Origin: Candidatus Methanophagaceae archaeon GoMg1
GTDB lineage: Archaea; Halobacteriota; Syntropharchaeia; Alkanophagales; Methanospirareceae
Direction of reading: 5' to 3'
DNA: 64,000 nt
NCBI GenBank assembly: GCA_013180605.1
Contig: QBUL01000189.1
Location: 2,483 to 66,482, forward strand
Positions within the stretch are counted from its first letter, which is position 1, and the number at the start of each line of letters is the position of its first letter. The position numbers and the translations under genes are program-made. Below are positions 5,353 to 32,196 of this stretch, piece after piece. The notes below the pieces were generated by a model. It was not told the DNA's origin, did no database searches, and saw only the letters and a program-made list of their open reading frames with translations.

Positions 5353-6015
<663 letters not shown>

Positions 6016-6018
6016 GCA

Positions 6019-7209
6019 ATGAGAGATAAATTACTTATGGCGTACCGGAGCATAAGGGAAAGACGAACTCGCTCGATACTCACCGTGCTGGGTATCGCGG
6101 TGGGAATAGCGGCTATCGTTTCTTTGATGAGCGTTGGCTATGGTATGGAGGAGGCGATAACAGGTGAATTGACGGGGTATGCTGATTTCATCGGGGTGTT
6201 TCCAGCAAAAATAACTGGTACGACCTACGTGGAACTGGGGAGTTTTACTGATAGAGATTTAAAAGACGTGCAGCGGATAGGCGGTATAAAGGAGTTCTCG
6301 GCAATGACGTTCGACTCCGCAGAAGTGGAATACAGGAACAAAAGAGTGCCCATTTTTTTCATCAGTGGTGATACTAAGGAGCTGGAGAGCATGTATGTGG
6401 AGCCCGTAGGGCTCAAGGAAGGGCGGTGGCTCAGAGAGAATGATTATAAAGGCTGCGTCATTGGAGACCGGGTAGCCAATGACTACTTCGATGAAGTTGT
6501 ACACGTGAACGATAAGCTGATAATAAACGGCGAGAAATTTATTGTCGTTGGTGTTTTTGAAAAGGCAAGCACGCTGTATGCCTCTGACATAGATCCTTAT
6601 ATTTTCCTCACGTTGCGTGCTACAAAGGAAGCTCTGCAAACTGATGAGATAAATTACATCATGGTACGGGTCTATGACATAGAGGAAGCGGAAGAGATAG
6701 CAGAGGAGATCAAGGAAGCGATAAATGACAATCATGGACTCGATGATTTCGCCAACGCAATGACGATGGGTAGCATGATAGAAATGATGGGGGATGTTTT
6801 TAATATTATACGTGGCGTTCTGGTTGGAATAGCGGCAATTGCACTCGTTGTTGCATCCATTGGTATCATGAACACGATGTTGATGTCTGTAATGGAGCGT
6901 ACGCATGAGATCGGTGTGATGAAGGCAATCGGTGCGAAGAGCAGCGATGTCCTCTCTCTTTTCCTATTAGAATCGAGTATGGTGAGTCTGGTGGGCGGTG
7001 TGGTTGGCTGTGTACTGGGCGCTGTGGCGGCGAAAGTCATCAGTCTCGGTGCAGGCACTGCATTGGGGATTGAATTTGGTGCGGTTGTAAAACCCGAAGT
7101 GTTACTTGGCGGCATGGTAGTTGCAATGGTTGTGGGCGTTCTAGCAGGGTTCTATCCCGCGCGTAAGGCGTCAAGAATGAGTCCGGTCGAAGCGGTGAGG
7201 CACGAATAA
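6019..7209 (+). CDS. ABC transporter permease, FtsX/MacB-like (N-terminal TM, large extracytoplasmic domain, C-terminal 3-TM FtsX module)
   Basis: 'NTMLMSVMERTHEIGVMKAIGA' FtsX motif; C-terminal 'PARKASRMSPVEAVRHE'. Confidence 0.85.
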   Translation: MRDKLLMAYRSIRERRTRSILTVLGIAVGIAAIVSLMSVGYGMEEAITGELTGYADFIGVFPAKITGTTYVELGSFTDRDLKDVQRIGGIKEFSAMTFDSAEVEYRNKRVPIFFISGDTKELESMYVEPVGLKEGRWLRENDYKGCVIGDRVANDYFDEVVHVNDKLIINGEKFIVVGVFEKASTLYASDIDPYIFLTLRATKEALQTDEINYIMVRVYDIEEAEEIAEEIKEAINDNHGLDDFANAMTMGSMIEMMGDVFNIIRGVLVGIAAIALVVASIGIMNTMLMSVMERTHEIGVMKAIGAKSSDVLSLFLLESSMVSLVGGVVGCVLGAVAAKVISLGAGTALGIEFGAVVKPEVLLGGMVVAMVVGVLAGFYPARKASRMSPVEAVRHE

Positions 7210-7236
7210 ACCTTCTTTCTAAAGAAAGAAGCTTTA
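7203..7236 (+). terminator. Perfect palindrome CTTCTTTCTAAAGAAAGAAG immediately after the permease stop codon
   Basis: Seen directly. The same hairpin family recurs at 8466-8530 and 54797-54835. Confidence 0.5.
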
Positions 7237-7279
7237 TCAAGAAAGATTGTTTTTGCAAAGCAAAAAAGGGTGTTGAGCA

Positions 7280-8467
7280 ATGAAGGATGCATTTCTGTTA
7301 GTATATAGGAACATGAAGGAGCGAAAAGCTCGGTCTGCACTCACGGTACTGGGTATTATGGTGGGCATAGGCGCCGTAATCGCATTAATGTCCGTTGGCT
7401 ACGGGATGCAGGAATCAATAACAGGTCAGCTCGTTGAGATGGCAGATGTCATTATGGTAATGCCGATGAGGATGGAATTAGGCAGCATTGGCGCATTTGG
7501 CAGCTTTACCGACCGTGATCAGGAAGCGGTGAGGCGGATAGGAGGTATAAAAGATGCTGTGGCAATGAGAGGCGAGATGGAAGAAGTAGAATACAAGGGC
7601 GAAAAGTTCATGGTGCATGTCATTGGTACAGACCCCAAAGATGTAGGTGCGCTATTTGGAGCGATAGTGAAGCCAGAAGAGGGAAGATACTCAAAGGCAA
7701 ACGACCACAAAACATGCACCATCGGGTACAGCATTGCTAATGATTACTTCGATGACGAGATTGGAGTTAACGATAGGCTCACGATAAATGGCAGTAAGTT
7801 CAGGGTCGTTGGGGTATTGGAGAAGCAAGGAGGGTTCAGGTCCGAAACGGATTCGGAGATATACGTAACGGCACGAGATTCGGTGAGTATTCTCGATAAC
7901 GAGGATATTTCGGAAATCTTCGTGCGTGTGCGGAATATAGGCGAAGCGGAGGAGATAGCGACGGAGATAGAGGAGCGGATAGATGACAATCACAAGCTGG
8001 ACGATTTTACGTCTGCAATGACAATGGGAAGCGCGATAGAGCAGATGGAGTCCATCTTCGGGATATTGCAAGCGGTTTTAATCGCCATCGCGTCTATTTC
8101 ACTTATCGTTGCTGCAATGGGGATAATGAACACGATATTGATGTCGGTGATGGAGCGTACGCATGAGATTGGCGTGATGAAAGCAATCGGCGCGAAGAAC
8201 AGGAATATTCTTTTTCTGTTCTTACTCGAAGCTGGAGTAGTGAGTGCAATAGGAGGCGTGTGTGGCTGTATTTTCGGCGTGATTGGCGCTCATGCTATAA
8301 GTTTCGGTATACATACGGCGTTTGACGTGGAAATCGCAGCGATTGTGAAACCCGAAGTTCTGCTCGGTGCGGTAGTGGTTGCGATGCTTGTGGGTATTCT
8401 ATCCGGGTTGTATCCCGCGAGGAAAGCGTCAAAGATGAGTCCTGTTGAGGCGGTGAGGTATGAGTAA
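7280..8467 (+). CDS. ABC transporter permease, FtsX/MacB-like (paralog of the preceding gene)
   Basis: Collinear paralog: 'NTILMSVMERTHEIGVMKAIGAKN' and 'PARKASKMSPVEAVRYE'. Confidence 0.85.
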   Translation: MKDAFLLVYRNMKERKARSALTVLGIMVGIGAVIALMSVGYGMQESITGQLVEMADVIMVMPMRMELGSIGAFGSFTDRDQEAVRRIGGIKDAVAMRGEMEEVEYKGEKFMVHVIGTDPKDVGALFGAIVKPEEGRYSKANDHKTCTIGYSIANDYFDDEIGVNDRLTINGSKFRVVGVLEKQGGFRSETDSEIYVTARDSVSILDNEDISEIFVRVRNIGEAEEIATEIEERIDDNHKLDDFTSAMTMGSAIEQMESIFGILQAVLIAIASISLIVAAMGIMNTILMSVMERTHEIGVMKAIGAKNRNILFLFLLEAGVVSAIGGVCGCIFGVIGAHAISFGIHTAFDVEIAAIVKPEVLLGAVVVAMLVGILSGLYPARKASKMSPVEAVRYE

Positions 8468-9722: not shown

Positions 9723-10418
9723 GTGAAACGTAAAGTAATATTAAAATTAGGTGGCAGTCTGATAGAAAAATCACGGGACATCCTGCGGGTTCTTGTAGAT
9801 TATGCCCGTGAGCGTGATGGAGATAAAAATGGAGATTTCACCCTGGTACTGATTCCCGGTGGTGGACCTTTTGCTGAAACGGTAAGAAATATCTCTGCGA
9901 CTATGTCAATACCCGATGAAACAGCACATTGGATGGCTGTTCTCGCAATGCACCAGTATGGGCTTTTTTTGGCTGCTTGTAGCGGAGGTGAAGCCGGGAT
10001 ACCTTTGGTCGAAAGCGAGGATGAGGATGAAATAGACTGTGCTGGACCGATATGCATATTACTGCCCTATAAGATTCTAGAACAGGATGATTGCTTACCT
10101 CATACCTGGGACGTCACGTCGGACACGATAGCTGCGTTTGTCGCAAACAGGCTGGGTGAAAAAAGATTCATAAAATTGACCGATGTAGATGGAATACGTG
10201 ATAAAAAGAGCGGGCATCTTATCGAAAAAATCCGGGCGAACGAGCTGGCGGGGGAACAGGCAGCTGGTCTGAATTGTATTGATGCGGAGCTTCCAGGATT
10301 TTTAATGCAGACCAAAATGAGCTGCATTATTGTAAACGGCAACTACCCAAACAGGATAATAGATGCAATCGAGGAGAAAGAGAACGTGAACAAGACGGTC
10401 TGCACAAAAATCTTTTAG
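9723..10418 (+). CDS. Amino-acid-kinase-family protein (UMP-kinase / MfnE / isopentenyl-phosphate-kinase-like). GTG start. Exact substrate not assignable.
   Basis: 'VILKLGGSLI' phosphate loop, 'LIPGGGPFAE', and 'HTWDVTSDTIAAFVANRLGEKRFIKLTDVDGI' resemble the archaeal UMPK/IPK fold. There is no ProB-type 'VSSGA' motif. Confidence 0.65.
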   Translation: MKRKVILKLGGSLIEKSRDILRVLVDYARERDGDKNGDFTLVLIPGGGPFAETVRNISATMSIPDETAHWMAVLAMHQYGLFLAACSGGEAGIPLVESEDEDEIDCAGPICILLPYKILEQDDCLPHTWDVTSDTIAAFVANRLGEKRFIKLTDVDGIRDKKSGHLIEKIRANELAGEQAAGLNCIDAELPGFLMQTKMSCIIVNGNYPNRIIDAIEEKENVNKTVCTKIF

Positions 10419-11335
10419 AGTGCAGATGTCGCAGAAGCTTTCTTTCTACGAGAACGCGGACGTGGTCGTGGGGAAAGAGAATCCACATCCAAGTCTAACC
10501 CTTTTTCCAGTTCCTTATACCTATTTCGGATTGTAATCTCCGTTGTACCTACTACCTTGGCTATTTCCTTCTCCGTTCGGTACTCGCCACTTAAAACCGC
10601 GGCAATGTATATCGCCGCTGCTGCTGTTCCTATTGGTGCCCAGCCCCTCGCAGTTCCCGTTCCCTCATTCCTCTTTAGTATCTCTATTGCCTTTTCCCTT
10701 ATCGCCTCGCTTAATCCTAATGCGGAGCAGAACCGAGGAATGTAATGCGATGGGTCAGCAGGGGCAATCTTCAATCCGAATTTCCTTAAAAGGAAAATAT
10801 ACGCACGCCTTATTTTCTTCAGGGGGCTTCTTGACACCCGCGCAATTTCCTTCAGCGTTCGTGGAATCCCATTTTGCCTGCAAATAATGTACAGCATTGC
10901 TGAGACCAATTCTTCTATACTGCGTCCCTTAATCAAATTTCGTTTCGCCGCTTTTCGGTACAGCACAGAAGTCATCTCTTTAATATCATTCGGCAGCTTA
11001 AGTGCGCATGCCATTCTATCTATCTCGATAAGTGCGAAGGCAAGGGTCTTCTCGCTACTGTCCATGTTTACCCACTTTAATCTCTGTATCCCGGCGGGTA
11101 ATTTTGGCGTTGGTGTGCTCAGCCCTTTATCATGAATTCTATAACTCATACCCGGACCTGTTCTTACCCTTTTTGATGCTTGCTCGGAATCGTACGCACG
11201 CCATTCTGGTCCGAGGTCCACGAGATTCTCCGCTATCACCATCCCGCAGTTGGCACAGTACAGTTCTGCATGCTTAGAATCAGACACAACGTTTTTTGAT
11301 CCGCATTCTGGACATATTTTTAGTTTGTTTGCCAT
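10415..11335 (-). CDS. tfb: Transcription initiation factor IIB (TFB)
   Basis: N-terminal Zn ribbon 'CPECGSKNVVSDSKHAELYCANCGMV' and two cyclin folds. Start placed at MANKLK (the six-frame ORF reads through upstream). It has an unusual Arg/Pro-rich C-terminal tail 'SPRPRPRSRRKKASATSAL'. Confidence 0.9.
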   Translation of the reverse strand: MANKLKICPECGSKNVVSDSKHAELYCANCGMVIAENLVDLGPEWRAYDSEQASKRVRTGPGMSYRIHDKGLSTPTPKLPAGIQRLKWVNMDSSEKTLAFALIEIDRMACALKLPNDIKEMTSVLYRKAAKRNLIKGRSIEELVSAMLYIICRQNGIPRTLKEIARVSRSPLKKIRRAYIFLLRKFGLKIAPADPSHYIPRFCSALGLSEAIREKAIEILKRNEGTGTARGWAPIGTAAAAIYIAAVLSGEYRTEKEIAKVVGTTEITIRNRYKELEKGLDLDVDSLSPRPRPRSRRKKASATSAL

Positions 11336-11379
11336 ACCAGAGATGTTTATATTTTTTCTGTTATATAATACTTTCGTTT

Positions 11380-11430
11380 TTATTGTATATAAAGTGTAAC
11401 TTCCCTCTGTTTGAGACACGGATTTTTTCT
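11380..11430 (-). promoter_or_regulatory. tfb promoter carrying the same extended motif, TCTCAAACAGAGGGAAGTTACACTTTATATACAAT (on the minus strand)
   Basis: Reverse complement of 11388-11425 matches the cassette's 3' motif. Confidence 0.6.
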
Positions 11431-11526
11431 TTTGTTCTTGAGACCGAAAACTTTTTATATTGCCTCGACATATTTTAAAAGCATGACAAAAGTTAGCGAA
11501 AGGGATATTAAAAAAAAAGGAGGTGA

Positions 11527-11850
11527 TTGAAAATGGTAGAAGAAAAACAGGGGGGATTGAAACAGTTGTTTGTTTACGAACATGATGCAAGTCGGCTGGA
11601 ACTTTTCATCAGAATCGTGTATTCGTTCGTTGTAATGCTGGTGTTAGCTGTGTACGGATTTATCGCAGAGATATGCATGCTTATTCAGTGGTTTGTGGTA
11701 TTGATACTTGGACGCAGAAGCGAGGGGTTAAGCAACTTCATTAAAGGGTATCTGGAATATTTTGTGCACGTGATAGGCTATGTTTACTGGATGACCGACG
11801 ATAGACCCGGAATATTCCCAAAGCCTGTTGAGATATACGAGAAAAAGTGA
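11527..11850 (+). CDS. Small membrane protein, DUF4389-like
   Basis: Two TM helices and a 'WMTDDRPGIFP' tail typical of that family (from memory). Confidence 0.4.
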   Translation: MKMVEEKQGGLKQLFVYEHDASRLELFIRIVYSFVVMLVLAVYGFIAEICMLIQWFVVLILGRRSEGLSNFIKGYLEYFVHVIGYVYWMTDDRPGIFPKPVEIYEKK

Positions 11851-12000: not shown

Positions 12001-12990
12001 ATGAGAACTGCGTGGCTGAAGATAAGGATGGGGATGTGTGTATTGCTCCTGTTTGCGGTGATATATGCGCTATTAATCGTTATAGCTACCCTCTTAGGAG
12101 GTACAGGGTCTGGTATGATGATAATTTATGCTTTAATCGCATTCGTGCTGGTGGGTATTCAGTTCTTTATAGGTCCGAAGATAGTGGAGCGGTCAATGCG
12201 TGTTCGCTATGTTTCGGAACAAGAGCAGCCGGAATTGCACCGGATGGTGACCGAATTAGCGATGAAGGCAGGGATACCCAAACCAAGGGTAGGGATTTCT
12301 GAGATTTCTATACCCAACGCTTTTGCGTTCGGCACCTCGAAAAAGAAAGCGAGGGTTTGCGTCACGCGAAGATTAATGGAGATGTTAAGCAGGGACGAAT
12401 TAGAAGCGGTTTTAGGGCATGAACTTTCGCACATAAAACATCAAGATATGGTAGTTATAACGGCGCTGAGCGTGATACCGATGATATGCTACTTCATCTA
12501 TTTCAGCTTCTTCTGGTCGGGTATCTTCGGCGGCGGCATGGGCAGAAGTAGAGATGGAGCGTTACCAATGATGGCTATTGCTTTAATCGCCTTCGTGGTG
12601 TATTTCATAAGTAACCTTATCGTGCTTTACGTGTCTCGTATAAGGGAGTATTATGCGGATGCAGGAAGTGCAGAGCTAACGAGAAAGCCTCATGAACTCG
12701 CTTCTGCGCTATACAAAATGATTTATGGTAGTGCAGGAGCGAAGCCGGAAAAGGTAAAAAAGGAAATGGAAAGTATGCGAGCTTTCTTCGCTGCCGACCC
12801 TGTAACTGCAAGGAGGGATTTAAAGGATTTGCGCGCTGCCGATTTAAATAAAGATGGAAAGATAGATGAATATGAACTAAGAGCTTTTGCAGAAAGGGCA
12901 AGAGTAAGCCGTGCTGATAGGTTGATGGAAATCTTTTCCACGCATCCTACCCCGGTTAGCAGGGTTAAAAAGCTGGGAGAGTATCTTTAA
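12001..12990 (+). CDS. htpX: M48-family zinc metalloprotease HtpX homolog with an inserted EF-hand-like loop
   Basis: 'HELSHIKHQD' (HExxH), downstream Glu and a C-terminal 'FSTHPTPVSRVKKL' motif. Canonical EF-hand loop 'DLNKDGKIDEYE' at aa ~281-292. Confidence 0.8.
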   Translation: MRTAWLKIRMGMCVLLLFAVIYALLIVIATLLGGTGSGMMIIYALIAFVLVGIQFFIGPKIVERSMRVRYVSEQEQPELHRMVTELAMKAGIPKPRVGISEISIPNAFAFGTSKKKARVCVTRRLMEMLSRDELEAVLGHELSHIKHQDMVVITALSVIPMICYFIYFSFFWSGIFGGGMGRSRDGALPMMAIALIAFVVYFISNLIVLYVSRIREYYADAGSAELTRKPHELASALYKMIYGSAGAKPEKVKKEMESMRAFFAADPVTARRDLKDLRAADLNKDGKIDEYELRAFAERARVSRADRLMEIFSTHPTPVSRVKKLGEYL

Positions 12991-19575: not shown

Positions 19576-21435
19576 TTGGAGGTTGGTAAAAAGATGGCAA
19601 AAACAATAGGTATAGATGTAGGAACGAGCAATTCCGCTGCGGCTGCATTGATCGGTGGTAAGTCCACGATAATCCCAAGCGCGGAGGGGACAAGTCTTGG
19701 AGGCAAAGCATTCCCCTCGTATGTGGCATTTACGAAAGATGGGCAGATGCTGGTTGGAGAACCTGCGAAAAGGCAGGCGGTGTCCAATCCTGAAGGGACG
19801 GTGATGGCAATCAAGCGTAAGATGGGCACGGACTACAAGGTGAAGGTTCATGGCAAGGAATACACGCCACAGCAAATAACCGCTTTCATTCTCCAAAAGA
19901 TAAAACGTGACGCAGAAGCATTCTTGAGCGATAAAGTTGACAAGGCGGTCTTAACCGTGCCGGCATACTTCAATGACAACCAGAGGACTGCGACAAAGGA
20001 TGCAGGTGCGATTGCCGGTTTAGAAGTCGTCAGAATAATTAACGAACCCACAGCCGCGGCGCTTGCTTACGGAATTGACAAAGCAGAGAAAGAGCAGAAG
20101 ATCCTGGTATTCGATTTTGGCGGTGGCACACTTGACGTAACGACTATGGAGTTCAGCGAAGGTGTATTTGAGGTCATATCCACGAGTGGAGACACCCAAT
20201 TGGGAGGCACAGACATGGATAGCGCAATCGTGGATTACGTAGCGGAAGAGTTCAAGAAGGAATCGGGGATTGATGTGAGGAAGGATAGTATGGCGGTGCA
20301 AAGGCTGCGGGAGGCGAGTGAAAAGGCGAAGATAGAACTTTCTAATGTGCTTGAGACCGATATAAACCTGCCTTTCATCACCGCGGACGCCTCTGGACCG
20401 AAGCACCTCGTCATGAAACTCACGCGGGCAAAATTAGAGGAACTCGTGAGACCAATCGTGGATAAATGTAAAACTTCAGTAGACAGGGTATTACAGGATG
20501 CTAAACTCTCTCCCCCGGACATCACCAAAATCATTTTCGTTGGTGGACCGACGAGGATGCCAATAGTGCAGAAATTTGTCGAGGATTACGTGGGTGTGAA
20601 AGGAGAGCGTGGCGTTGACCCGATGGAATGCGTAGCGACGGGTGCTGCAATACAGGCAGGTGTTCTGACTGGCGAAGTAAAGGATGTACTGCTGCTGGAT
20701 GTCACTCCACTCTCGCTTGGTATTGAGACCTTAGGCGGCGTGTTCACCAAATTAATCGAAAGGAACACCACGATTCCCACGCGGAAGGGCGAAATATTTT
20801 CGACTGCAGCGGATAATCAAACGAGCGTAGAGATCAATGTTCTGCAAGGCGAGCGCGAATTTGCGAGGGATAACACTTCCCTTGGGAGGTTCCATCTGAT
20901 GGATATTCCGCCCGCGCCAAGAGGCGTGCCTCAAATTGAGGTTACCTTCGACATTGATTCCAACGGCATATTAAATGCCACAGCCAAGGACATGGGCACG
21001 GGGAAGCAGCAGGCAATCACAATCACAGCGTCAACTAAACTAGCTCAAAGTGAGATAGACAGGATGGTTGATGAGGCGACACGATTTGAAGATGAGGATA
21101 AAAGGCGTCGTGAAGCGGTGGAAACGAAAAATCAGGCTGAGAATCTTGTATATACCACTGAAAGGTCGCTCACGGATTTGGGCGATAAGGTCACGAGTGA
21201 CGAACGGACGAGGATTAATGCGATTACAGAACGATTGAAGGAGACAATAAAGAGCGAAGACGTCCACAAGATACGGGCTGAGATGGAGGAATTGACACGT
21301 GCATTCCACGAGATTTCAACGCGTGCATATCAACAAGCAGGAGCACAGTATCAGCAACGAGAAGGTCCAAAGGCAAAGGAAGAGAAAAAAGGGCCCGAGG
21401 ATGTGGAATACAAGGTGATGGATGAGGAGGAATGA
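19576..21435 (+). CDS. dnaK: Hsp70 chaperone DnaK
   Basis: '[13 protein letters not shown]', '[11 protein letters not shown]', '[14 protein letters not shown]'. No grpE upstream in this window. Confidence 0.95.
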
Positions 21436-21602: not shown

Positions 21603-21977
21603 TTAATCATTCCCTCTCCCCTCTCCAAGGTTCTTTATGCTTTTTACCCGAAATTTGTTGAGTTCAATGTCTTTTCCCTCCCGGAAAACATTCTCTATAA
21701 ACTTATTGCCTTCATCCATCATCCTGCGTATTTCAGGCGTGGTGTAGCCAATAGGTTCAATCTGTTTCGACTTCAAAAAGTATAATTTCGCCTGCCTCTT
21801 GAACCACTCATCCGGGAAGTCATCAGATACCAGAAGAAGGTCAATATCACTGTGCGGATAAAAGTCACCTCTGCTCCTCGAACCAAACAATACCACTCGC
21901 TTTAATCTAAACTCGCGGTCAACTCTTCTGCAATATTCGATTACCCGCTCTATTATTGAGCCCGTTTCTCTGCCCAT
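21603..21977 (-). CDS. Minimal nucleotidyltransferase (MNT/Pol-beta superfamily), solo with no HEPN partner
   Basis: 'VVLFGSRSRGDFYPHSDIDLLLVSDD' is the GS…D.D motif. Confidence 0.7.
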   Translation of the reverse strand: MGRETGSIIERVIEYCRRVDREFRLKRVVLFGSRSRGDFYPHSDIDLLLVSDDFPDEWFKRQAKLYFLKSKQIEPIGYTTPEIRRMMDEGNKFIENVFREGKDIELNKFRVKSIKNLGEGRGND

Positions 21978-22316
21978 TCAAGCAACCTCCTGCTATTTTT
22001 TAGACATTCTTCACTTCTTTTGAGTAGACTTGTTGCTAATTAAAGATACTCCATACGCAAAGGCTTTTAGTTAGATAGGACAAGTATAATAAATTATGAT
22101 ATCTCTTAACGATAGGGTAATGAGAGCCACAACAGGGCTCTATCCGCATCAGAATTCAATCACCTGGCGAAGCGTTCCGGTCAAGCAAAAACAACTCTCT
22201 TTTAAGTGCTGTCTCTAACAGGCCAATCGCTGTCGCAACATCCGGAACCTCAAGCGTTATCATTTTGCATTTTGCATTGTCAGCACAAAAACCATCGGTT
22301 TTTTGTGTTGACTCGC

Positions 22317-24218
22317 CTAGACACCCCTGTTGAAATGCCCCCGAGTGTGTTTCCGCAGTACGGACTTTTTAGCGGGTTTTCCATCTAGGATATACCGGTA
22401 CAGACGAATTATCTTCTCTGCTTTCCCGTCTGTAAGGTCAAGAAAGAATTTCATTATTCCCGAATCCCGAAGCATGGTTATGTCGTTGAAGATACCAATG
22501 GGCAAGCTGTTAAGTATCTGAGTGTAATTGAATTCCTTTCGTACGGGAAAAGCAAAACCACGTTCGTCCTTCAACGATCGCACTTTAAGCGGATATTTGG
22601 TGGTCATAAGTACCGGTCTGCCGTGAACAAGAACCGCGAAATTTTTGTTCGCGAATTCCTGGAGCTCATCGCAATTGAGCTCCAGAGAGATTATCGGAAC
22701 GGCACCCTTAACAAAAGCCATATCTATATCGTTAAAGACGTTAGTGGAATAGTCGAGATAACTTTTGGATCCGGATAGCGCAGATAACAGCCCGCCGTTT
22801 CCGAGCAGTACCGCCTCTGAATCCTTCACCATACTTATAGCGTACTTTGCATTGGAGTCCGACAGGATCCGAGGGATATATGGTAACGCATCGGCATCGT
22901 GAAAATCGCGTGCGAAGACCGAGTAAAAGACATAGTCAGCACCTGCTCTTGATGCGCCCATTGCGTCCTCTTTAGAATATACCTTTGCTAATATCTCAAG
23001 ACCGTCTGATTCAGTCTTTTCGATTTCAGGTATTTGTAGCCGCTGCTTTGATCTTACCGGCGTGCCTATTTTGGGTTTTGGCTTTACAGGTGCATACTGA
23101 GTCTTCTTCCGTGACGAGGTCTTGTAGATTCTATCACCTGCATCTACACGGATGAACAGTTTTATTCTTTCGCCCGTACATGCTGAAGCGACCGAGCCAC
23201 CGTCTTTTTCCAGTCGCTTTATAACCGCGCCATCAATCCCGTTTTTGGTCCAGATGCTGATCCCGTCACTAACCGCGAGGTCTTCATGCAGTGTAATCAT
23301 TGTGTCCTCTTCAATCAGACCCAGAAAGACACCACGATTCTTCGGGCTGTCATCGGCTATGATCTCTCGTGCACCGAACATGTAGCCCTCGGTAAATCCG
23401 CGATTGAAAACAAGTGCTAACGCCTTCAATTCCTGTTCCGGCAGCCTGAAATTCCCAGCATAATATGAATCCACCGAAAGGCGGTAGACACGCGTTGCAA
23501 GTGCAGTATACTGCGGACTTCTGAGCCGCCCCTCGATCTTTAATGATGTCACTCCTGCCGATATTATCTCAGGAATCCTGCCGGCGAGGCATAACTCCTT
23601 TGTGCTCAACAGGTAGCTGTTGTTGTATCTCTTTCGGCACGGCTGTGCGCATACACCGCGGTTTCCACTTCTGCCACCTAATAAACTTGAGAATAGACAC
23701 TGGCCACTGTAACTGAAGCATAAAGCACCATGGACAAATACTTCGGTCTCTAGCCCTATCTTATCGACAAAATATTTTAGCTCTGCAAGTGTAAACTCCC
23801 TTGGAATCGTGACCCTATCGGCACCGGAAAGTAACGTAGAAAAGTAAGTGTTTGTTATCCCTGCCTGCGTTGACATATGGATTCTCAAATCTGGGAACGC
23901 ATCTTTAAGTATGCGTGCAAAAGAGATGTGCTGGATTATTATTCCGTCTATGCCACTGGCATATGCATCGGATATTGTATAGAAGAACTCACGCAGTTCA
24001 CTGTTTTTTATCAGGATATTAAATGCGCCGTATGCGCGTACACCATTATCATGTGCGTATGCTACGGCATCACGGAGCTGTTTTACAGTGAAACTCTCTG
24101 CACGCTGTCTCGCATTGAAGCTACCCACGCCGAAATAGACTGCATCTGCCCCGTTTTCTACTGCCGGCTTGAGTGATTTACAACCTCCTACTGGTGACAG
24201 AACTTCTACTTTTTTCAC
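22317..24218 (-). CDS. Peptidase-U32-family protein (633 aa, with C-terminal extension)
   Basis: The N-terminal ~300 aa match the U32 fold: 'VEVLSPVGGCKSLKPAVENGADAVYFG' and 'ALCFSYSGQCLFSSLLGGRSGNRGVCAQPCRKRY'. Confidence 0.8.
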   Translation of the reverse strand: MKKVEVLSPVGGCKSLKPAVENGADAVYFGVGSFNARQRAESFTVKQLRDAVAYAHDNGVRAYGAFNILIKNSELREFFYTISDAYASGIDGIIIQHISFARILKDAFPDLRIHMSTQAGITNTYFSTLLSGADRVTIPREFTLAELKYFVDKIGLETEVFVHGALCFSYSGQCLFSSLLGGRSGNRGVCAQPCRKRYNNSYLLSTKELCLAGRIPEIISAGVTSLKIEGRLRSPQYTALATRVYRLSVDSYYAGNFRLPEQELKALALVFNRGFTEGYMFGAREIIADDSPKNRGVFLGLIEEDTMITLHEDLAVSDGISIWTKNGIDGAVIKRLEKDGGSVASACTGERIKLFIRVDAGDRIYKTSSRKKTQYAPVKPKPKIGTPVRSKQRLQIPEIEKTESDGLEILAKVYSKEDAMGASRAGADYVFYSVFARDFHDADALPYIPRILSDSNAKYAISMVKDSEAVLLGNGGLLSALSGSKSYLDYSTNVFNDIDMAFVKGAVPIISLELNCDELQEFANKNFAVLVHGRPVLMTTKYPLKVRSLKDERGFAFPVRKEFNYTQILNSLPIGIFNDITMLRDSGIMKFFLDLTDGKAEKIIRLYRYILDGKPAKKSVLRKHTRGHFNRGV

Positions 24219-24238
24219 TATGATATAATATATATAAA

Positions 24239-24667
24239 ATGGAAAGATTTAAAAGGGTCTTCTTCTCGTGCTCGATGCGTGGTGGGTTTGGACGAGTCGC
24301 ACAGGAAGAGCTGAGGAAAATACCGGATATAATAGAAGAGCTGGGGATGGTGGTGATAAGCAGACATCAAACGAGCGAACGATTTATGGAAAGTGAGTCA
24401 CGATTGACAGATAAGGCGATTCACGATCGTGATTACGGATGGCTTAATGATGCAGACACGGTAATAGCAGAGATAACGAACCCGAGCCTCGGTGTCGGTG
24501 CGGAAATAGCAGATGCGGTTAACCTGGGTATTCCTGTGTTATGTGTATATAGAACAGATTATGAACGCCAGATTTCGGCATATATACGCGGTAAAGCGGG
24601 TGTTGTGTGTAGGGCATATTCAGATCATGACGAGCTGAAAGATGTGATCAGGGAGTTTGTGCTTTGA
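24239..24667 (+). CDS. 2'-deoxynucleoside 5'-phosphate N-hydrolase, DNPH1/Rcl ortholog (nucleoside 2-deoxyribosyltransferase-like fold)
   Basis: Aligns along its length with mammalian Rcl from memory: 'VFFSCSMRGG' vs 'VYFCGSIRGG', and 'IHDRDYGWLNDADTVIAEITNPSLGVGAEIADAVNLGIPVLCVY' vs 'IHEQDLNWLQQADVVVAEVTQPSLGVGYELGRAVALGKPILCLF'. Confidence 0.8.
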   Translation: MERFKRVFFSCSMRGGFGRVAQEELRKIPDIIEELGMVVISRHQTSERFMESESRLTDKAIHDRDYGWLNDADTVIAEITNPSLGVGAEIADAVNLGIPVLCVYRTDYERQISAYIRGKAGVVCRAYSDHDELKDVIREFVL

Positions 24668-24775
24668 TTCTTGTTGTATATAAGGTATAACTTCTACTTA
24701 TCCAAGACGCAGATTTACACTGATTTAATTTCTTCTGCGTTAATCAGCGTTAATCTGTGTCAATAATTAATTTTA
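24661..24775 (-). promoter_or_regulatory. Inverted copy of the CAGATTAAC cassette. Its promoter motif (reverse complement of 24661-24700: ATCTGCGTCTTGGATAAGTAGAAGTTATACCTTATATACAAC) points leftward into the 3' end of the DNPH1-like gene and toward the U32 gene.
   Basis: Reverse complement of 24700-24775 is 'ttgacacagattaacgctgattaacgcag…aatcagtgtaaatctgcgtc', the cassette consensus. Confidence 0.6.
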
Positions 24776-24945
24776 GTTGGATATTATGCTTTCTTGTTAT
24801 TGGAGATGGACGGTATTTTTCAGAAAATATCTCATACATAATCATCGCTAACCTTTTTCTCGCTTCAGCTAAATCGAAGTCATATTCCTTTTCTTTTTCT
24901 TTATCTACAACTAATACCTATTCCTTTTTACTTTTAGATTCCTTT

Positions 24946-25743
24946 TCAGCTATCTCCAAAAGGCAAATCTTTAACTAATTGACTTATTTCTTCACGTTCG
25001 GGCTTGGTCTTTTTTTCATAAATGTCACTCAGTTTTGCCATCTCATCCATTGAAAGGTATTTAATTCCATTGTCGGTTATTAAACACATGTCCGTTGATT
25101 TTCCTACTCCCTGGGATACTTCTGCATTCCTCTTTGCTTCATAAACTAAATATACTGCGTGATTTATAGAATTTTTAGGCGTATAATTGTTTAACATAAA
25201 TGTTGAAAGGGCATGAAGTTCACCAGACCCAATAGCATTGTATCCTAATGAATCATAACAGTCTGAAACACCTGGATCACGAACACCATGGATATGCGCA
25301 CCTTCATTATCTAATCCTACAATCAGAATCTCTAATTCATATTCTGTCTCTTCTATTTTTTTATGTATACCGACAACGATCTCAGCAGGTAATGAATCTG
25401 CATACTCCTTATAAAACGACTCCAAAGTCATTCCCTTTGGTTTGAGATACAGCTCTTCTACCCTGTTTTTTCTTTGTTCCACAAAACTATCCTTAATGCT
25501 CTTGGTGATTCGTGAAACCAATGGCTTGGAGATAGTAGCAAGGTCAGATTTCACCTCTCTAAAGAGTTCTGTATGGGCTAAAGCAGAACCTGCCGTGAGG
25601 GCTACGCAAGTGTCTGAAAGTTCCTCTATTTTTGGTGTATCATGTTCAAATTCGATTGGGGGATACCAGGCAGTCACCATCTTGTCAGATGCCACTACCG
25701 CAGCTTTATATTCATCACATATCGCTCCGATACATATTGTCAT
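24946..25743 (-). CDS. Proteasome-beta/HslV/Anbu-like N-terminal-nucleophile hydrolase (Thr directly after the initiator Met, no propeptide)
   Basis: 'MTICIGAICDEYKAAVVASDKMVT…DTCVALTAGSA…YNAIGSGELHA' follows the T1-peptidase fold pattern 'TTxVGI…vvLAaD.R.t…A.tiAGs…GSG'. Length 265 aa with a C-terminal extension. Confidence 0.6.
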   Translation of the reverse strand: MTICIGAICDEYKAAVVASDKMVTAWYPPIEFEHDTPKIEELSDTCVALTAGSALAHTELFREVKSDLATISKPLVSRITKSIKDSFVEQRKNRVEELYLKPKGMTLESFYKEYADSLPAEIVVGIHKKIEETEYELEILIVGLDNEGAHIHGVRDPGVSDCYDSLGYNAIGSGELHALSTFMLNNYTPKNSINHAVYLVYEAKRNAEVSQGVGKSTDMCLITDNGIKYLSMDEMAKLSDIYEKKTKPEREEISQLVKDLPFGDS

Positions 25744-25834
25744 CCTATCCCTTTATCCCCCCCCTCGTCATTTCAATATTAAAGTAGTAGTTCATAATAT
25801 AAATTAATGCGGCTATTAAATAACATATATAGCT

Positions 25835-26977
25835 ATGCCAAAGAAAGATTATTACGAGATACTCGGCGTTAGCAGAGACGCCAAAGAGAAAGATATAAAA
25901 AAAGCATATCGAAGATTGGCAAAGCAATATCACCCCGATACATACAAAGGCGATAAAAAAGAGGCTGAGGAGAAGTTCAAAGAGATTTCTGAGGCATACG
26001 AGGTGCTGGTTGACAAGGATAAACGTGCGAAGTATGACCAGATTGGGTCAAGGGTAGCGGACGAAGCTTTTGGACCCGAAGGTTTCAATTGGAGCCACTT
26101 CACGCATTCTCAGGATGTTGAGGACATCTTCGGGAATGCAATATTTGATTCGTTCTTCAGGTCTGCCGCCAGTCCTGGATTTGCAGGCAGTGGTGGAATA
26201 TTTGACACCCTCTTTGGAACACGAGAAGGGATACAAAGACCGGTTGTTCGCGGCGTTAACGTGCGTTTGAATTTGGATATTACGCTTGAAGGTGCAGCTC
26301 TGGGTGCAGAAAAGACGATTGAAGTCCCGATGTCACGGACATGCAAAGCTTGTGGAGGTTCCGGAACTCGTTCCGGGAAATCCGGTGCGTGTCCCTATTG
26401 CAAAGGTACCGGTCAGATAAGAAACGTGCAAAATAGAGGGGGTACCCGCGTGATAACCGCTGCGGTCTGCCCTCAGTGCAGAGGCACGGGGAGAGCCACT
26501 TACGACCTCTGCAACGTATGCGGTGGAACGGGTACCGTATCAAAGCGAACAAAGATATTGCTTAAGATTAAGAAAGGTGCTTATACTGGCTATGAAATAA
26601 AGATACCAAAAGCTGGAAGAGCTCCAGAGTCCAGGATTGGCGGAGAACCAGGCGACCTGTACGTGGTATTAAACGTTTTACCACATCCAATCTTTGAAAG
26701 ACGAGGAGATGACCTTTATATGAAAACGCCGGTAAGTTTTGCCCAGGCAGCCCTGGGTGGTGAAGTCGTGGTCACCACAATAGACAAAAAACGTGTGAAG
26801 GTGAAAATCCCGTCGGAAACGCAGACAAATACGCAATTTCGCTTGCACAGACTGGGAATGCCAAGGATTGATGGTGGAGGTCGTGGAGATGTATATGTGG
26901 AGGCGGTCGTGCAAACGCCAAAGAATCTTACGGAGAGGCAGAAGGAACTGTTACGGGATGCGTTAGTTGATATGTGA
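25835..26977 (+). CDS. dnaJ: Hsp40 co-chaperone DnaJ
   Basis: J-domain '[31 protein letters not shown]', Gly/Phe region, four CxxCxGxG zinc-finger repeats. Confidence 0.95.
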
Positions 26978-27111: not shown

Positions 27112-28107
27112 TTACATTTGTGGCACAATATGCACGCCAACAATCATCGGATACGCACCGTATTCCAGCCTACCAATGCCGTAATCCGTATAAGTAAGAC
27201 CAACAGCGAGATAAGTATCGTTTTTCTTTAAATACAGGAGCATTCTCAGCCCGTAAGTCCAGCGATGCTTTTTCTTTAGCTCGTTCCATGTTTTGTAGAA
27301 GTCATCACACCTGCACGACCATCTTCGGTAGGTTCTGCCTGAGGAATCCTTGAAGTTAAAACGGATGTACAGTTCATAGCCTTTGCCTTTTCCCGTTTTC
27401 TTTCCCGCAGGCTCTTCATAGACATGCAAAATGCGTGGTTTTATCAATCCTAAGCTCCTGCCTCTTTTGAATACTTCATCTACTGAACCATCAACGTTTC
27501 GCTCTAAGAAATCTCTTTTCTCTTCTTCGCTTAGCTCCCTTTCCACGCTATCGGCATAAACAAAAAACCTGTCCTCTTTTCGTGGTCGCCTGCCTCTCCA
27601 CGCATCAACGTATATTTTTGAGATGCAGAGGTTTTTGAAATTTGCTCCTCCAGCTCCAGCACAAAAAACATCGTGTTCATAAACGCCTTGTGGCCTTATC
27701 CATTTACCGTTCTCGTCTATACCTGCGATGCAGACCCGTCCATGCTCAGGTCTTGCAACTGCCAGTACGGTAAGACGCTGCGCGGGTGCGCGATTTAACG
27801 GGGCAATATTCGCAGTAATCTCTGTTATTCGTGTGTATTTCCCTGCATTCACTCTTTTCTCGCTTCCTGCTCGCGCCGCATCAGGAACACGTGCGTTTTC
27901 TATCTTCAGCACGTCGCCTGCTTTTATATCGCCGTGAATAACGAGTTCTGCCTTTTCATCCCAGCACGATACCCTCTTGTAATCGAATTCATCGGCTATT
28001 ATGAGGTCAACGACCTTTTTGGTTTCGTCACCAACATCCACTTCTCTAAGTGGCATAATTCGAAGTACTTTTCCGGTTATGGTTATAGTTCTGGTTATGT
28101 TCGCCAT
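27112..28107 (-). CDS. Protein with an N-terminal RPA-like OB fold fused to a ~220-aa uncharacterised, Cys-containing C-terminal domain
   Basis: 'ITITGKVLRIMPLREVDVGDETKKVVDLIIADEFDYKRVSCWDEKAE' matches the archaeal RPA OB-fold pattern. The C-terminal part ('RVCIAGIDENGKW…WSCRCDDFYKTW') is unrecognised. Confidence 0.5.
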   Translation of the reverse strand: MANITRTITITGKVLRIMPLREVDVGDETKKVVDLIIADEFDYKRVSCWDEKAELVIHGDIKAGDVLKIENARVPDAARAGSEKRVNAGKYTRITEITANIAPLNRAPAQRLTVLAVARPEHGRVCIAGIDENGKWIRPQGVYEHDVFCAGAGGANFKNLCISKIYVDAWRGRRPRKEDRFFVYADSVERELSEEEKRDFLERNVDGSVDEVFKRGRSLGLIKPRILHVYEEPAGKKTGKGKGYELYIRFNFKDSSGRTYRRWSCRCDDFYKTWNELKKKHRWTYGLRMLLYLKKNDTYLAVGLTYTDYGIGRLEYGAYPMIVGVHIVPQM

Positions 28108-28922: not shown

Positions 28923-29978
28923 GTGCCTACCATGTACCGTCCAAACTTCACCATTACGAACAAAATCCTCAACCACATAGCAGATATTTCTGCTTCTCGC
29001 GAGGTCATACTTAACGCACCGCTGCTCCCGAAATGGGAGGTCAAACTGAGAAAGGAAGCAATTCTAAAGATGACGCACCATTCTACAAGTATCGAAGGGA
29101 ACAGACTCACAATGGAAGAGGTTAATAGGCTGCTCCGCGGTGAAGATATAGCGGCATGGGAAAAGGACAAAAAAGAGGTCTTAGGATATGTGAAGGTTCT
29201 GGAATACATAGACAAGTTAGGAGAAAAAGGTGCTGACAATATTACTGAGGACATAATCCTGGAAATACACAGGTTAAATACCATGGGAATTCTTACGGAT
29301 TCCGAAGCCGGGCACTATCGAAAAGTGGAGGTAGCAGTGGTTAACGGTCTGGGAAGGGTAACCTTTCAACCACCGGAAGCATCACAAGTTCCCGCTTTAA
29401 TGCACGATTTTGTTGCTTGGCTAAACGGTAAAGAAGCAAAAGAATTATATTACACTGTTTTGGTGAGCGGGATTGCACATTACGAACTCGTTCGGATACA
29501 CCCATTTGTAGATGGCAACGGTAGAACTGCGCGGGCACTGGCAACGTTGATTCTATACCTCCGCGATTTTGACACGAAACGTTTTTTTGCGTTGGATGAT
29601 TATTATAATGAAGAACGCAGCAGATACTACGCAGCTCTGCAAACCGTTGACCAAGAAACAATAAACATCTCACAATGGTTAGAGTACTTTACGGAAGGCG
29701 TTGCAGTAAGTATGGGACGCGTGAAACAAGCCATTTTAGACCTGAGTGTAGACCTGCATCTAAAAGAACAAAGGGGACAAATATACTTAAACGATAGGCA
29801 GATGAAGATTCTCAAGTATCTTCAGACTAATCCAAGAATTACCATCAGTGAGATACAGAAAATGTTCGATAAAAAAATTAGTAGAGACACTGCAAACCGT
29901 GCTCTCAAACCACTGTTAGAAAATAAGTTGGTGAAAAGGATAGGTAAAGGGAGGGCGATATACTATGAACTGGCATAA
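28923..29978 (+). CDS. Fic-domain (AMPylation-family) protein with an N-terminal inhibitory helix and a C-terminal winged HTH
   Basis: Fic motif 'HPFVDGNGRTARAL'; inhibitory (S/T)xxxE(G/N) motif 'STSIEGN' at aa ~54; C-terminal 'ITISEIQKMF…KLVKRIGKGRAIYYEL'. Confidence 0.85.
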   Translation: MPTMYRPNFTITNKILNHIADISASREVILNAPLLPKWEVKLRKEAILKMTHHSTSIEGNRLTMEEVNRLLRGEDIAAWEKDKKEVLGYVKVLEYIDKLGEKGADNITEDIILEIHRLNTMGILTDSEAGHYRKVEVAVVNGLGRVTFQPPEASQVPALMHDFVAWLNGKEAKELYYTVLVSGIAHYELVRIHPFVDGNGRTARALATLILYLRDFDTKRFFALDDYYNEERSRYYAALQTVDQETINISQWLEYFTEGVAVSMGRVKQAILDLSVDLHLKEQRGQIYLNDRQMKILKYLQTNPRITISEIQKMFDKKISRDTANRALKPLLENKLVKRIGKGRAIYYELA

Positions 29979-31219: not shown

Positions 31220-31280
31220 AAATTTAAGGATATATATAGCAATTTCGCAGATTAAGAATAGGGCGATTGCTCGCCCATTC

Positions 31281-32196
31281 TCATCTCAGAACGGTACGTG
31301 AAAGTTTCCCCTCATACCGCTCAAGCATTTCATAACCCTTTCTGTATCGGGCAGCAGTTTGGTTCCGTGGCATTTGGTCTTTTGATTTTAGTTTAACTGC
31401 TCTTGTAATTCTGGCTTGCAGCCTGTTAACATGTTTTTCAGCCTTTTTCCAGTCGATATCCATCCACCTGATTTTTGGTTGAATGTCTGTAAGTCTCTCG
31501 CCTATTGTAGGCGTAATTGAACTACTTACATTCACAGGTTTGCCTCCATGCATACAATGAAACACCTTTCGGTAAGTCAGCACCCTTTCGAGTTAGGGCA
31601 AATTTTGAACCCCTATACGCCTCATTACAAGATGTCATTCGCTTTTTACCGATTCCTCTACCCTATATGCCATCGTTTACCCTTACGAGGTCCCTACCCA
31701 GCGATTCCGGGAGCATATAGGGCTTACCAAGTTCTACATCGCAGATAACTATGAACGCCTTAGAAGCCATCTGTGAGCCGAGAACCGTTTGTCCATCCAC
31801 CATAACGTCCCAGTAGCCGTTATGGCCTGATTCCGCACCTTTTGGTCTAAGCGTATCAACCCAATTTCGCTTATTCTAATTTACGACTCCCACAATGGTT
31901 CGCATTACACTCTTCATAGCGTTCTTATCCTGGCAGTTGATCTGAGCTGGGTTCTCGGATTTTTCCACGTTGTCCTGCAAGCTTACCACGCAAGCGTTAC
32001 CCCCGGCGTGTTCCGCAGTAGGATTACCCCTGATGGATGGGGTAGCCACAAAGCAATCCGCGATGCAACTTCTTGTCAACAAACTGGAAAATTAGATAGT
32101 GCCAGAAACTTTAGCTTACGACCTTACGACCGTGCTATTCTTTGGGGTTAGTTGTCCTCTGGCGGAACTGGGATACAACCCTGAGAGGATTCGCCG
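31281..32196 (-). mobile_element. 5' portion of a group II intron (RNA domains I-III plus the first ~100 codons of the intron-encoded reverse transcriptase), truncated at its 3' side
   Basis: ORF 31281..31583 (minus): '…IDWKKAEKHVNRLQARITRAVKLKSKDQ' is the conserved N-terminal 'W..I.W…V..LQ.RI..A' segment of group II IEPs. The ~600 nt upstream (minus orientation) is structured non-coding RNA-like sequence beginning near GTGACG at 32196. Confidence 0.5.

Follow-up and report, generated by a model that had tools for sequence, protein, structure and literature searches.

A propeptide-less proteasome homolog, probably of the PHI family, with a decayed microprotein partner gene and transposon-borne relatives, next to dnaJ in a Methanophagaceae archaeon

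Introduction

A census of proteasome homologs by Fuchs, Alva and Lupas (2021; PMC8665760) yielded 22 new families, for which the authors report no genomic context or co-occurrence pattern hinting at function. One of these, PHI, occurs in bacteria and archaea, lies among the clusters nearest to the proteasome, is propeptide-less, and carries a long insertion past helices H1/H2 at the pore-loop site, with a C-terminal coiled-coil helix in some members; such pore-loop insertions, according to the same study, might keep the subunits from closing into a ring or else provide a cap. Here, we describe a gene with matching features, transcribed divergently from dnaJ, in a stretch of 64,000 nt from Candidatus Methanophagaceae archaeon GoMg1 (GCA_013180605.1, contig QBUL01000189.1, positions 2,483-66,482, forward strand), referred to in its full length as the window.

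Taken together, the results make it probable that the gene encodes a PHI-like N-terminal-nucleophile hydrolase (MEROPS T1-type) belonging to a mobile cassette, rather than a 20S beta subunit, HslV, Anbu, BPH or connectase. A first-pass annotation, made from the sequence letters, had likened it to HslV, Anbu and BPH and raised the possibility of a previously unnoticed proteostasis module. Its features match those published for PHI, so that its kind is probably not unnoticed; the gene belongs to a kind already described bioinformatically and orphan experimentally.

Hydrolase gene, active site and fold

The gene, its candidate catalytic residues and its leader are as follows.

24946..25743, minus strand: predicted PHI-like hydrolase of the proteasome superfamily, with N-terminal threonine and no propeptide, 265 aa
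Within this protein: catalytic candidates Thr2, Asp20, Lys38, Gly52 and Ser173 (Ser173 within the GSG loop)
25744..25784, minus strand: promoter-proximal leader of the cassette, with an A/T-rich box and a G-rich ribosome-binding stretch

The encoded protein begins MTICIGAICDEYKAAVVASDKMVT, with MTICI as opening residues. An in-frame stop lies 3 codons 5' of the ATG and therefore leaves no room for an encoded propeptide; an MT start is found family-wide. The leader, whose A/T-rich box (tttaatatt) is placed ~35-40 nt 5' of the ATG, would act as promoter.

Conservation was assessed with 100 diverse representatives of 28-48% identity, and additionally in a 40-sequence alignment. T2, D20, K38, G172, G174 and G214 were invariant in 100/100 representatives, with MT[IV]CI as the family start, and M1, C4, E33, G52, R91, G143, P157, K204 and E208 were kept in at least 90% of them. 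Three observations of the first-pass annotation are borne out by these data: the Thr exposed directly after Met1 in a 265-aa ORF without propeptide, the GSG loop YNAIGSGELHA (residues 167-177), and the catalytic residues it had named for inspection, as the equivalents of Thr1, Asp17 and Lys33 (Thr2, Asp20 and Lys38) are invariant and Gly52 is nearly so. As a separate observation, H150 is invariant in the 40-sequence alignment and C4, C9 and C162 are kept in at least 90% of its members, none of them with a counterpart in the canonical catalytic set; across the 100 more diverse representatives, only C4 of these four is still conserved at or above 90%. C4, C9, C162 and H150 could form a redox or metal site close to the N-terminal strand.

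In profile searches, the protein passed the Pfam threshold for PF00227 (Proteasome; 28.5 bits, cutoff 22.4), with coverage of residues 132-207 only, and scored 25.5 bits against TIGR03634, the equivalog model of archaeal 20S beta subunits, for which the cutoff is 224. This low score and the upstream stop agree with the initial view that it is not a canonical archaeal 20S beta subunit with a mis-called start. When the family profile built from 40 sequences was compared to the PDB, E-values were ~1e-9 to 1e-10 for 20S beta2-type chains and ~1e-7 for alpha subunits; judged from these profile matches, homology to the proteasome exceeds chance by far. No HslV, Anbu or BPH chain was among the best 60 of 156 PDB matches. 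Of the features described below, the insertion sets the protein apart from these enzymes, and the C-terminal helix sets it apart from HslV and BPH. In the profile alignment, Thr2, Asp20, Lys38 and Gly52 fall on Thr1, Asp17, Lys33 and Gly47 of beta2, and ~37 residues (87-123) are without a beta2 counterpart.

The AlphaFold2 monomer model is confident (predicted local distance difference test, pLDDT, 92.4; predicted template modelling score, pTM, 0.87) and reproduces the sandwich of the proteasome fold. H1 spans 56-68 and is followed by a long H2 (76-103); two additional helices (107-114, 120-132) precede a strand at 137-145, H3 (175-184) and H4 (193-207) are linked by an 8-residue loop only, and a 27-residue C-terminal helix occupies 232-258. 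The extra length is thus distributed over a helical insertion of ~35-40 residues past H2 (gap in the hidden Markov model (HMM) alignment at ~87-123; ~104-135 in the model) and a C-terminal helix of ~27 residues, in place of the ~70-aa C-terminal extension assumed at first. Searched with Foldseek against the PDB, the model retrieved 20S subunits as top-ranking matches; PHROGs returned a single weak match, to an HslV-family phrog (3.5e-4).

As all PHI features listed in PMC8665760 are present, the hydrolase is filed as a probable PHI member, an assignment made by match to the published description. An exhaustive profile search (E <= 1e-30) delineated a family of 1,334 clusters at 50% identity, whose members carry the public labels "hypothetical protein" or "20S proteasome alpha/beta subunit"; a search started from a Methanobacterium homolog gave these labels as well, and no named reference. 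Its distribution is patchy, with 80 genome loci spread over many bacterial and archaeal phyla; tblastn of the hydrolase against plasmid and phage collections gave no match.

Microprotein partner

Genomic context was analyzed in these 80 loci, taken from species-representative genomes (all metagenome-assembled genomes, MAGs), and in a further set from metagenome assemblies. A co-directional ORF of 40-110 aa, starting between -60 and +40 nt from the stop codon, was present behind the hydrolase gene in 48 of 76 loci and behind 84 of 314 control genes (odds ratio 4.7, Fisher p = 6e-9). Of 10 loci obtained through exact protein look-up, 8 carry such a partner ORF (47-59 aa) in the annotation of independent gene callers; with the uncalled ORF of locus L006 included, the count is 9/10, and only L091 is without any. 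The microproteins (45-80 aa) are highly charged, with one predicted amphipathic helix, and fall into a first type with the motif LAExRxRLAxxRY, for which a profile search found 41 clusters database-wide, and a second type starting MF[ILV]K...SLRExF; a Pfam search of both types gave no match. A third sequence type is found downstream of the hydrolase gene in two Omnitrophota loci, L041 and L047, in which a co-directional ORF also lies directly upstream of the cassette (L041, 5281-5967, a PIN-domain protein; L047, 5423-5983, no Pfam match).

In the clade of the window, the intact microprotein has 58-60 aa and the consensus MxEMESKSKKEEVLVVDKEKEKEYDxDLAEARKRLAMIRYEIFSEKYxPSPIIKKKKQRL (L011, L093, L096, L099, L101, L103); L105 holds the same ORF as the L011 group, with a GTG start. 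Comparison with these intact orthologs revealed a decayed copy in the window itself.

24750..24953, minus strand: decayed microprotein gene

Neither of its start codons survives (ATG to ATA, ATG to AAG), an in-frame TAG has replaced a GAG, and the C-terminal end is divergent, leaving a 31-aa ORF (24750-24845) as the only one with an ATG start. An HMM derived from the partner ORFs of bacteria nonetheless matches the fragment (E = 3.5e-6 against ~100 sequences). Read-through of the TAG as pyrrolysine was considered and rejected, because both start codons are lost as well. A nuclease gene has taken the place of the microprotein gene in L007-L009.

Since the start of the microprotein gene lies at or overlaps the stop of the hydrolase gene, the arrangement is consistent with translational coupling of the two. 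We infer that the microprotein is a co-expressed binding partner of the hydrolase, and regard it as a candidate subunit, regulator or substrate. A role as essential inhibitor or antitoxin is unlikely for the microprotein, as the hydrolase stays intact without it in the window and in L007-L009.

Transposon carriage

A DDE transposase gene is located 130-750 bp downstream, or in one case upstream, in ~26 of the 80 loci; L110 adds one more. The types found beside the cassette are IS1 (PF03400), IS1595 (PF12762), IS240/rve-like with a SWIM finger, and DDE_Tnp_1. Terminal inverted repeats surround the whole unit in eight loci, four with an IS1-type transposase (L006, L014, L031, L076) and four with an IS1595-type one (L017, L039, L073, L078), and none clear was obtained in an inverted-repeat search of the archaeal IS240/SWIM-type elements. 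The IS1-type terminal repeats share the core GGT(A/G)GTGGGTCAGTTTGA, and all four IS1-type elements are flanked by perfect target duplications of 8 bp (coordinates within the respective locus):

L006, 7231-9929: IS1-type element, target duplication AATTTTTC
L014, 5680-8137: IS1-type element, target duplication GGCCGGTC
L076, about 5620-8033: IS1-type element, target duplication GGGATGCG
L031, about 5634-8065: IS1-type element, target duplication GGCGCCCG

Along their 2.4-2.7 kb, these elements carry first an ORF of ~80 aa, then the proteasome homolog, next its microprotein partner and lastly the transposase gene. The ~80-aa ORF upstream of the hydrolase gene is frequent in transposon copies and has the motif GGLKGGxARAxxLSxxxRxxIAxKAAxARW. 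Because inverted repeats and 8-bp duplications enclose transposase and passenger together, the cassette is bona fide transposon cargo in many genomes, all of which harbor distant homologs of the window copy.

Probable horizontal transfer, and decay of copies, in the window lineage

Orthologs of 89-98% identity to the window protein were found in MAGs labelled Methanophagales, Methanosarcinales, Methanobacteriota, Halobacteria and Bathyarchaeia, in two main contexts. The divergent pairing with dnaJ recurs in L010, L011, L012 and L093-L095; in L010, the block of dnaJ and hydrolase gene is turned around compared with the window, and dnaK directly neighbors dnaJ in convergent orientation. In L007-L009, L092, L098, L100 and L106, the hydrolase gene is situated downstream of an Hsp20 gene. 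Copies of 95-98% identity show the order hsp20, hydrolase, microprotein, with L101 and L103 having another hsp20 behind the microprotein gene; in L007 and L105, a thermosome gene is found 2-3 kb away. A distant homolog (27% identity) from a Methanoregulaceae genome (L080; 4249-5820, minus strand, and 6001-6912, plus strand) is transcribed divergently from a thermosome gene and has an IS240/SWIM-type transposase gene behind it.

Between the window and L007-L009, DNA identity of 94% is limited to the gene and ~40 bp on each side, beginning 39 nt 5' of the ATG and ending 42 nt past the stop; to judge from these boundaries, ~39 nt of leader travel with the gene into unrelated contexts. Synonymous divergence (dS) of the hydrolase gene is 3-10 times below that of the adjacent dnaJ gene, with values of 0.23 and 1.08, respectively, for the window and L011, 0.22 and 0.57 for the window and L012, and 0.03 and 0.365 for L010 and L011. 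The GC content of the hydrolase gene is 0.385, compared to 0.43-0.49 in neighboring genes. Low dS relative to dnaJ, low GC content and identity confined to the gene and its flanks together point to recent horizontal exchange of the hydrolase gene between lineages. A ratio of non-synonymous to synonymous divergence (dN/dS) of 0.07-0.16 versus orthologs indicates that the gene is under purifying selection.

Two degenerate copies were encountered. The hydrolase of L012 (1311-2042; the same as that of L095) is without promoter and first 22 codons, nucleophile Thr included, and that of L100 (517-923) is internally deleted, with residues 1-91 fused to 213-257.

Neighboring genes in the window

The surroundings of the cassette comprise dnaJ on one side and, on the other, three genes that separate it from dnaK, which ends at 21435; assignments of the three are from Pfam/NCBIfam.

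25835-26977, plus strand: dnaJ, divergent neighbor of the hydrolase gene (context; any functional link is conjectural)
24239-24667, plus strand: nucleoside 2-deoxyribosyltransferase-like protein (Nuc_deoxyrib_tr, DNPH1-like)
22317-24218, minus strand: U32 family protein (Peptidase_U32)
21603-21977, minus strand: MNT-type nucleotidyltransferase (NTP_transf_2)

The divergent orientation toward dnaJ noted initially was recovered, with a gap of 91 bp. So was the gene content of the 4.4-kb insert between dnaK and dnaJ. The insert is not conserved in relatives: neither it nor the three genes are present in L010, for which reason the insert is regarded as lineage-specific, and 21603..24667 as filler between dnaK and the cassette, outside the cassette proper. 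No hslU AAA+ gene was found near the hydrolase gene, and within 5 kb of it in the window there is no ATP-grasp, Alpha-E or transglutaminase gene. Across the ~80 loci, AAA+ ATPases (HslU), ATP-grasp proteins and transglutaminases are not among the commonest Pfam families of the nearest neighbors, in line with the absence of such partners noted initially for the window.

Several further features were recorded in the vicinity. The solo MNT nucleotidyltransferase gene (21603-21977, minus strand) matches the PADLOC models PDC-S09 and PDC-M05A at 1e-10, with weak similarity to HalB/MntA, and no HEPN partner ORF was seen adjoining it. Near dnaJ, 27112-28107 (minus strand) encodes a protein of 331 aa whose N-terminus has an RPA-like OB fold (~1e-8 with the replication factor A models of NCBIfam); it also shows a partial DuOB domain and a weak PADLOC match (PDC-M19B, 4.6e-5), and may be a defense candidate. 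About 5 kb from the cassette, Rfam group II intron domains were detected at 31252-31324 and 31951-32044 (both minus strand; RF00029, 55 bits, and RF02012, 37.9 bits) with no long ORF between them; they probably mark a group II intron that is decayed or ORF-less, a further sign of surroundings rich in mobile elements. Within ~15 kb of the cassette there are also a long TFIIB/TFB paralog (10415-11590, minus strand, 391 aa), an M48 (HtpX-like) peptidase (12001-12990, plus strand) and a Fic/DOC protein with a winged-helix domain (28923-29978, plus strand). The HtpX-like protease, dnaK and dnaJ hint at a stress-gene-rich region.

Discussion

In the account that we consider probable, Met1 would be removed by methionine aminopeptidase, as is permitted by the small side chain of Thr; small penultimate residues, Thr among them, allow removal of the methionine by this enzyme. 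The freed amino group and the hydroxyl group of Thr would then provide base and nucleophile, in the manner of proteasome beta subunits; Asp20 and Lys38 would complete the triad and Gly52 form the oxyanion hole, on the grounds of residue invariance and fold, and a step of autoprocessing would be unnecessary. Oligomeric state and substrate access would probably be set by the two extra helices at the pore-loop site together with the long helix at the C-terminus, as seen in the model. The cassette consists of a short leader, the hydrolase gene and then the microprotein gene, and is horizontally mobile, as cargo of IS1-type and IS1595-type elements in many bacteria and archaea and elsewhere with an IS240/SWIM-type or DDE_Tnp_1 transposase gene just downstream. 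In the lineage of the window, it would have landed without a transposase beside dnaJ, and in close relatives beside hsp20 with a thermosome gene near. Its product would act as an ATP-independent peptidase or protease, an accessory trait that is possibly stress-related.

A number of points weigh against this account. The hydrolase family is known from sequence and predicted models, and the AlphaFold2 model covers the monomer. The PHI assignment was made by match to the published description of a cluster whose reference protein is WP_012956871.1. An inverted-repeat search around the window cassette gave no convincing repeats, and no transposase accompanies it; as neither flanks this copy, its mobility is derived from sequence divergence and composition, and unusual constraint, rather than transfer, might in principle lie behind the low dS of the hydrolase gene. 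Moreover, the cassette is dispensable and decaying in some genomes, given the decayed partner gene in the window, the truncated hydrolase in L012/L095 and the internal deletion in L100, and the window copy itself could be on a path to loss.

Among other explanations, an ordinary PsmB, a 20S beta subunit whose start had been mis-called, or an HslV, Anbu or BPH proper, would fit the passed PF00227 threshold and the beta2-type subunits at the top of the PDB matches, but the upstream stop and family-wide MT start, the low TIGR03634 score, the insertion with the C-terminal helix, and the lack of HslU and of Anbu operon partners among the commonest neighbor families leave it largely refuted already and extremely improbable. 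A second kind of explanation assigns the hydrolase the role of a sequence-specific peptide ligase or processing enzyme with the microprotein as its substrate. Connectase, reportedly a monomeric proteasome homolog acting as a specific ligase (PMC7980362), is a precedent for such monomeric enzymes; the conserved helix motif of the microprotein, the apparent translational coupling of the two genes, and the possible hindrance of ring formation by the PHI insertion (PMC8665760) would suit this proposal. The window protein nevertheless retains H1 and H2 and is devoid of the S3/S4 lid insertion that defines connectase, and the microprotein is dispensable in several lineages, so that we give the ligase proposal little credence. 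Highly unlikely, too, is a selfish or defensive two-gene module (toxin-antitoxin, addiction or abortive infection), in which a protease effector and a labile microprotein inhibitor would aid persistence of the transposon. Such a module would account for the compact, overlapping gene pair, its patchy occurrence in bacteria and archaea, its carriage by insertion sequences and surroundings rich in toxin-antitoxin, restriction-modification and PIN genes. Yet PADLOC gave no match for the hydrolase, the putative inhibitor gene lies downstream rather than upstream, and an essential antitoxin cannot be reconciled with a microprotein gene that is defunct in the window and replaced in L007-L009 next to a hydrolase gene still intact and under strong purifying selection.

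The proposal closest to the first-pass annotation, a dedicated proteostasis module co-regulated with Hsp70 (DnaK/DnaJ) or with heat-shock chaperones more widely, draws on the divergent pairing with dnaJ in the window, L010-L012 and L093-L095, on hsp20 adjoining the 95-98%-identical copies with a thermosome gene close by in two of them, and on the Methanoregulaceae homolog divergent from a thermosome gene. Three kinds of chaperone neighbors are thereby found among ~140 immediate neighbors, where ~0.5 would be expected by chance (a rough estimate that assumes ~0.4% chaperone genes). These neighbors are, however, confined to one archaeal group; at the family level, neighbors are highly diverse and the survey revealed no chaperone link, in contrast to what had been proposed for Hsp70 from the window. 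In addition, the 4.4-kb insert is missing from L010, the cassette brings its own conserved leader, and by dS the hydrolase gene is much younger at the locus than dnaJ. A by-eye comparison of the upstream regions of dnaJ, dnaK, hsp20, thermosome and hydrolase genes for a common heat-shock operator showed generic boxes resembling the B recognition element (BRE) and TATA only, with no other shared regulatory motif. We therefore consider a dedicated proteostasis module doubtful, and its link to chaperones a clade-level hint, a lead rather than a finding. A broader conjecture, which we put forward tentatively and think unlikely, is that the hydrolase-microprotein cassette is a recurrent functional accessory of DDE transposons of at least four types, domesticated into heat-shock neighborhoods (dnaJ, hsp20, thermosome) in archaea related to anaerobic methanotrophs (ANME) and Methanosarcinales. 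If true, the cassette could be a mobile proteolysis unit aiding element or host under stress, and the hydrolase a transposon-spread relative of the proteasome with a dedicated microprotein subunit.

For annotation, the gene should be named neither PsmB nor HslV. What the present analysis adds for a PHI-like family is the partner microprotein, carriage by transposons and chaperone neighborhoods specific to a clade; these three handles open experimental routes into an otherwise orphan, highly proteasome-like family. Carriage of the cassette inside transposons explains the patchy distribution over two domains of life, and it bears on the argument that dates such families of proteasome homologs to LUCA (last universal common ancestor).

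Comparison with known systems

Compared to the archaeal 20S beta subunit (PsmB, TIGR03634), the window protein differs by the missing propeptide, a score far below the equivalog cutoff, the 35-40-residue insertion and C-terminal helix, a patchy and mobile distribution, and the lack of any known alpha-subunit linkage of its family. With Anbu (PDB 5loy and related), it shares the absence of a propeptide and a long C-terminal helix; Anbu, however, is bacterial, has no helical insertion at the pore loop (PMC8665760), and has ATP-grasp, Alpha-E and transglutaminase as operon partners, which are not among the commonest neighbor families here, and the window family occurs in both archaea and bacteria. 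HslV, BPH and connectase are likewise N-terminal-Thr enzymes of the proteasome fold, of which BPH and connectase are also propeptide-less and the majority of HslV subunits carry a propeptide (PMC8665760). HslV and BPH differ in being compact, with ~175-185 aa and neither insertion nor C-terminal helix, and connectase in having a two-helix S3/S4 lid and no H1/H2, both of which are reversed in the window protein.

Insertion sequences of the IS1 and IS1595 families are reportedly able to carry passenger genes. The elements described here resemble such transporter insertion sequences in their single DDE transposase, the extra genes inside the terminal repeats and the 8-bp duplications; they differ in the passenger, which comprises a hydrolase related to the proteasome and one or two genes for microproteins, and no literature tying proteasome homologs to passengers of insertion sequences was found.

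The closest match is PHI, with which the window family shares the lack of a propeptide, the equivalents of Thr1, Asp17, Lys33 and Gly47, the long helical insertion after H1/H2 at the pore-loop site with none between H3 and H4, the long C-terminal helix reported in "some PHI representatives" (PMC8665760), the occurrence in bacteria and archaea, and sequence nearest to both 20S beta and 20S alpha subunits. It differs in extent, with 1,334 clusters at 50% identity versus 53 nr90 sequences in 2021 (PMC8665760), and in context: where that census had none that was informative, the loci analyzed here provide a microprotein partner, carriage by transposons and clade-specific chaperone neighbors.

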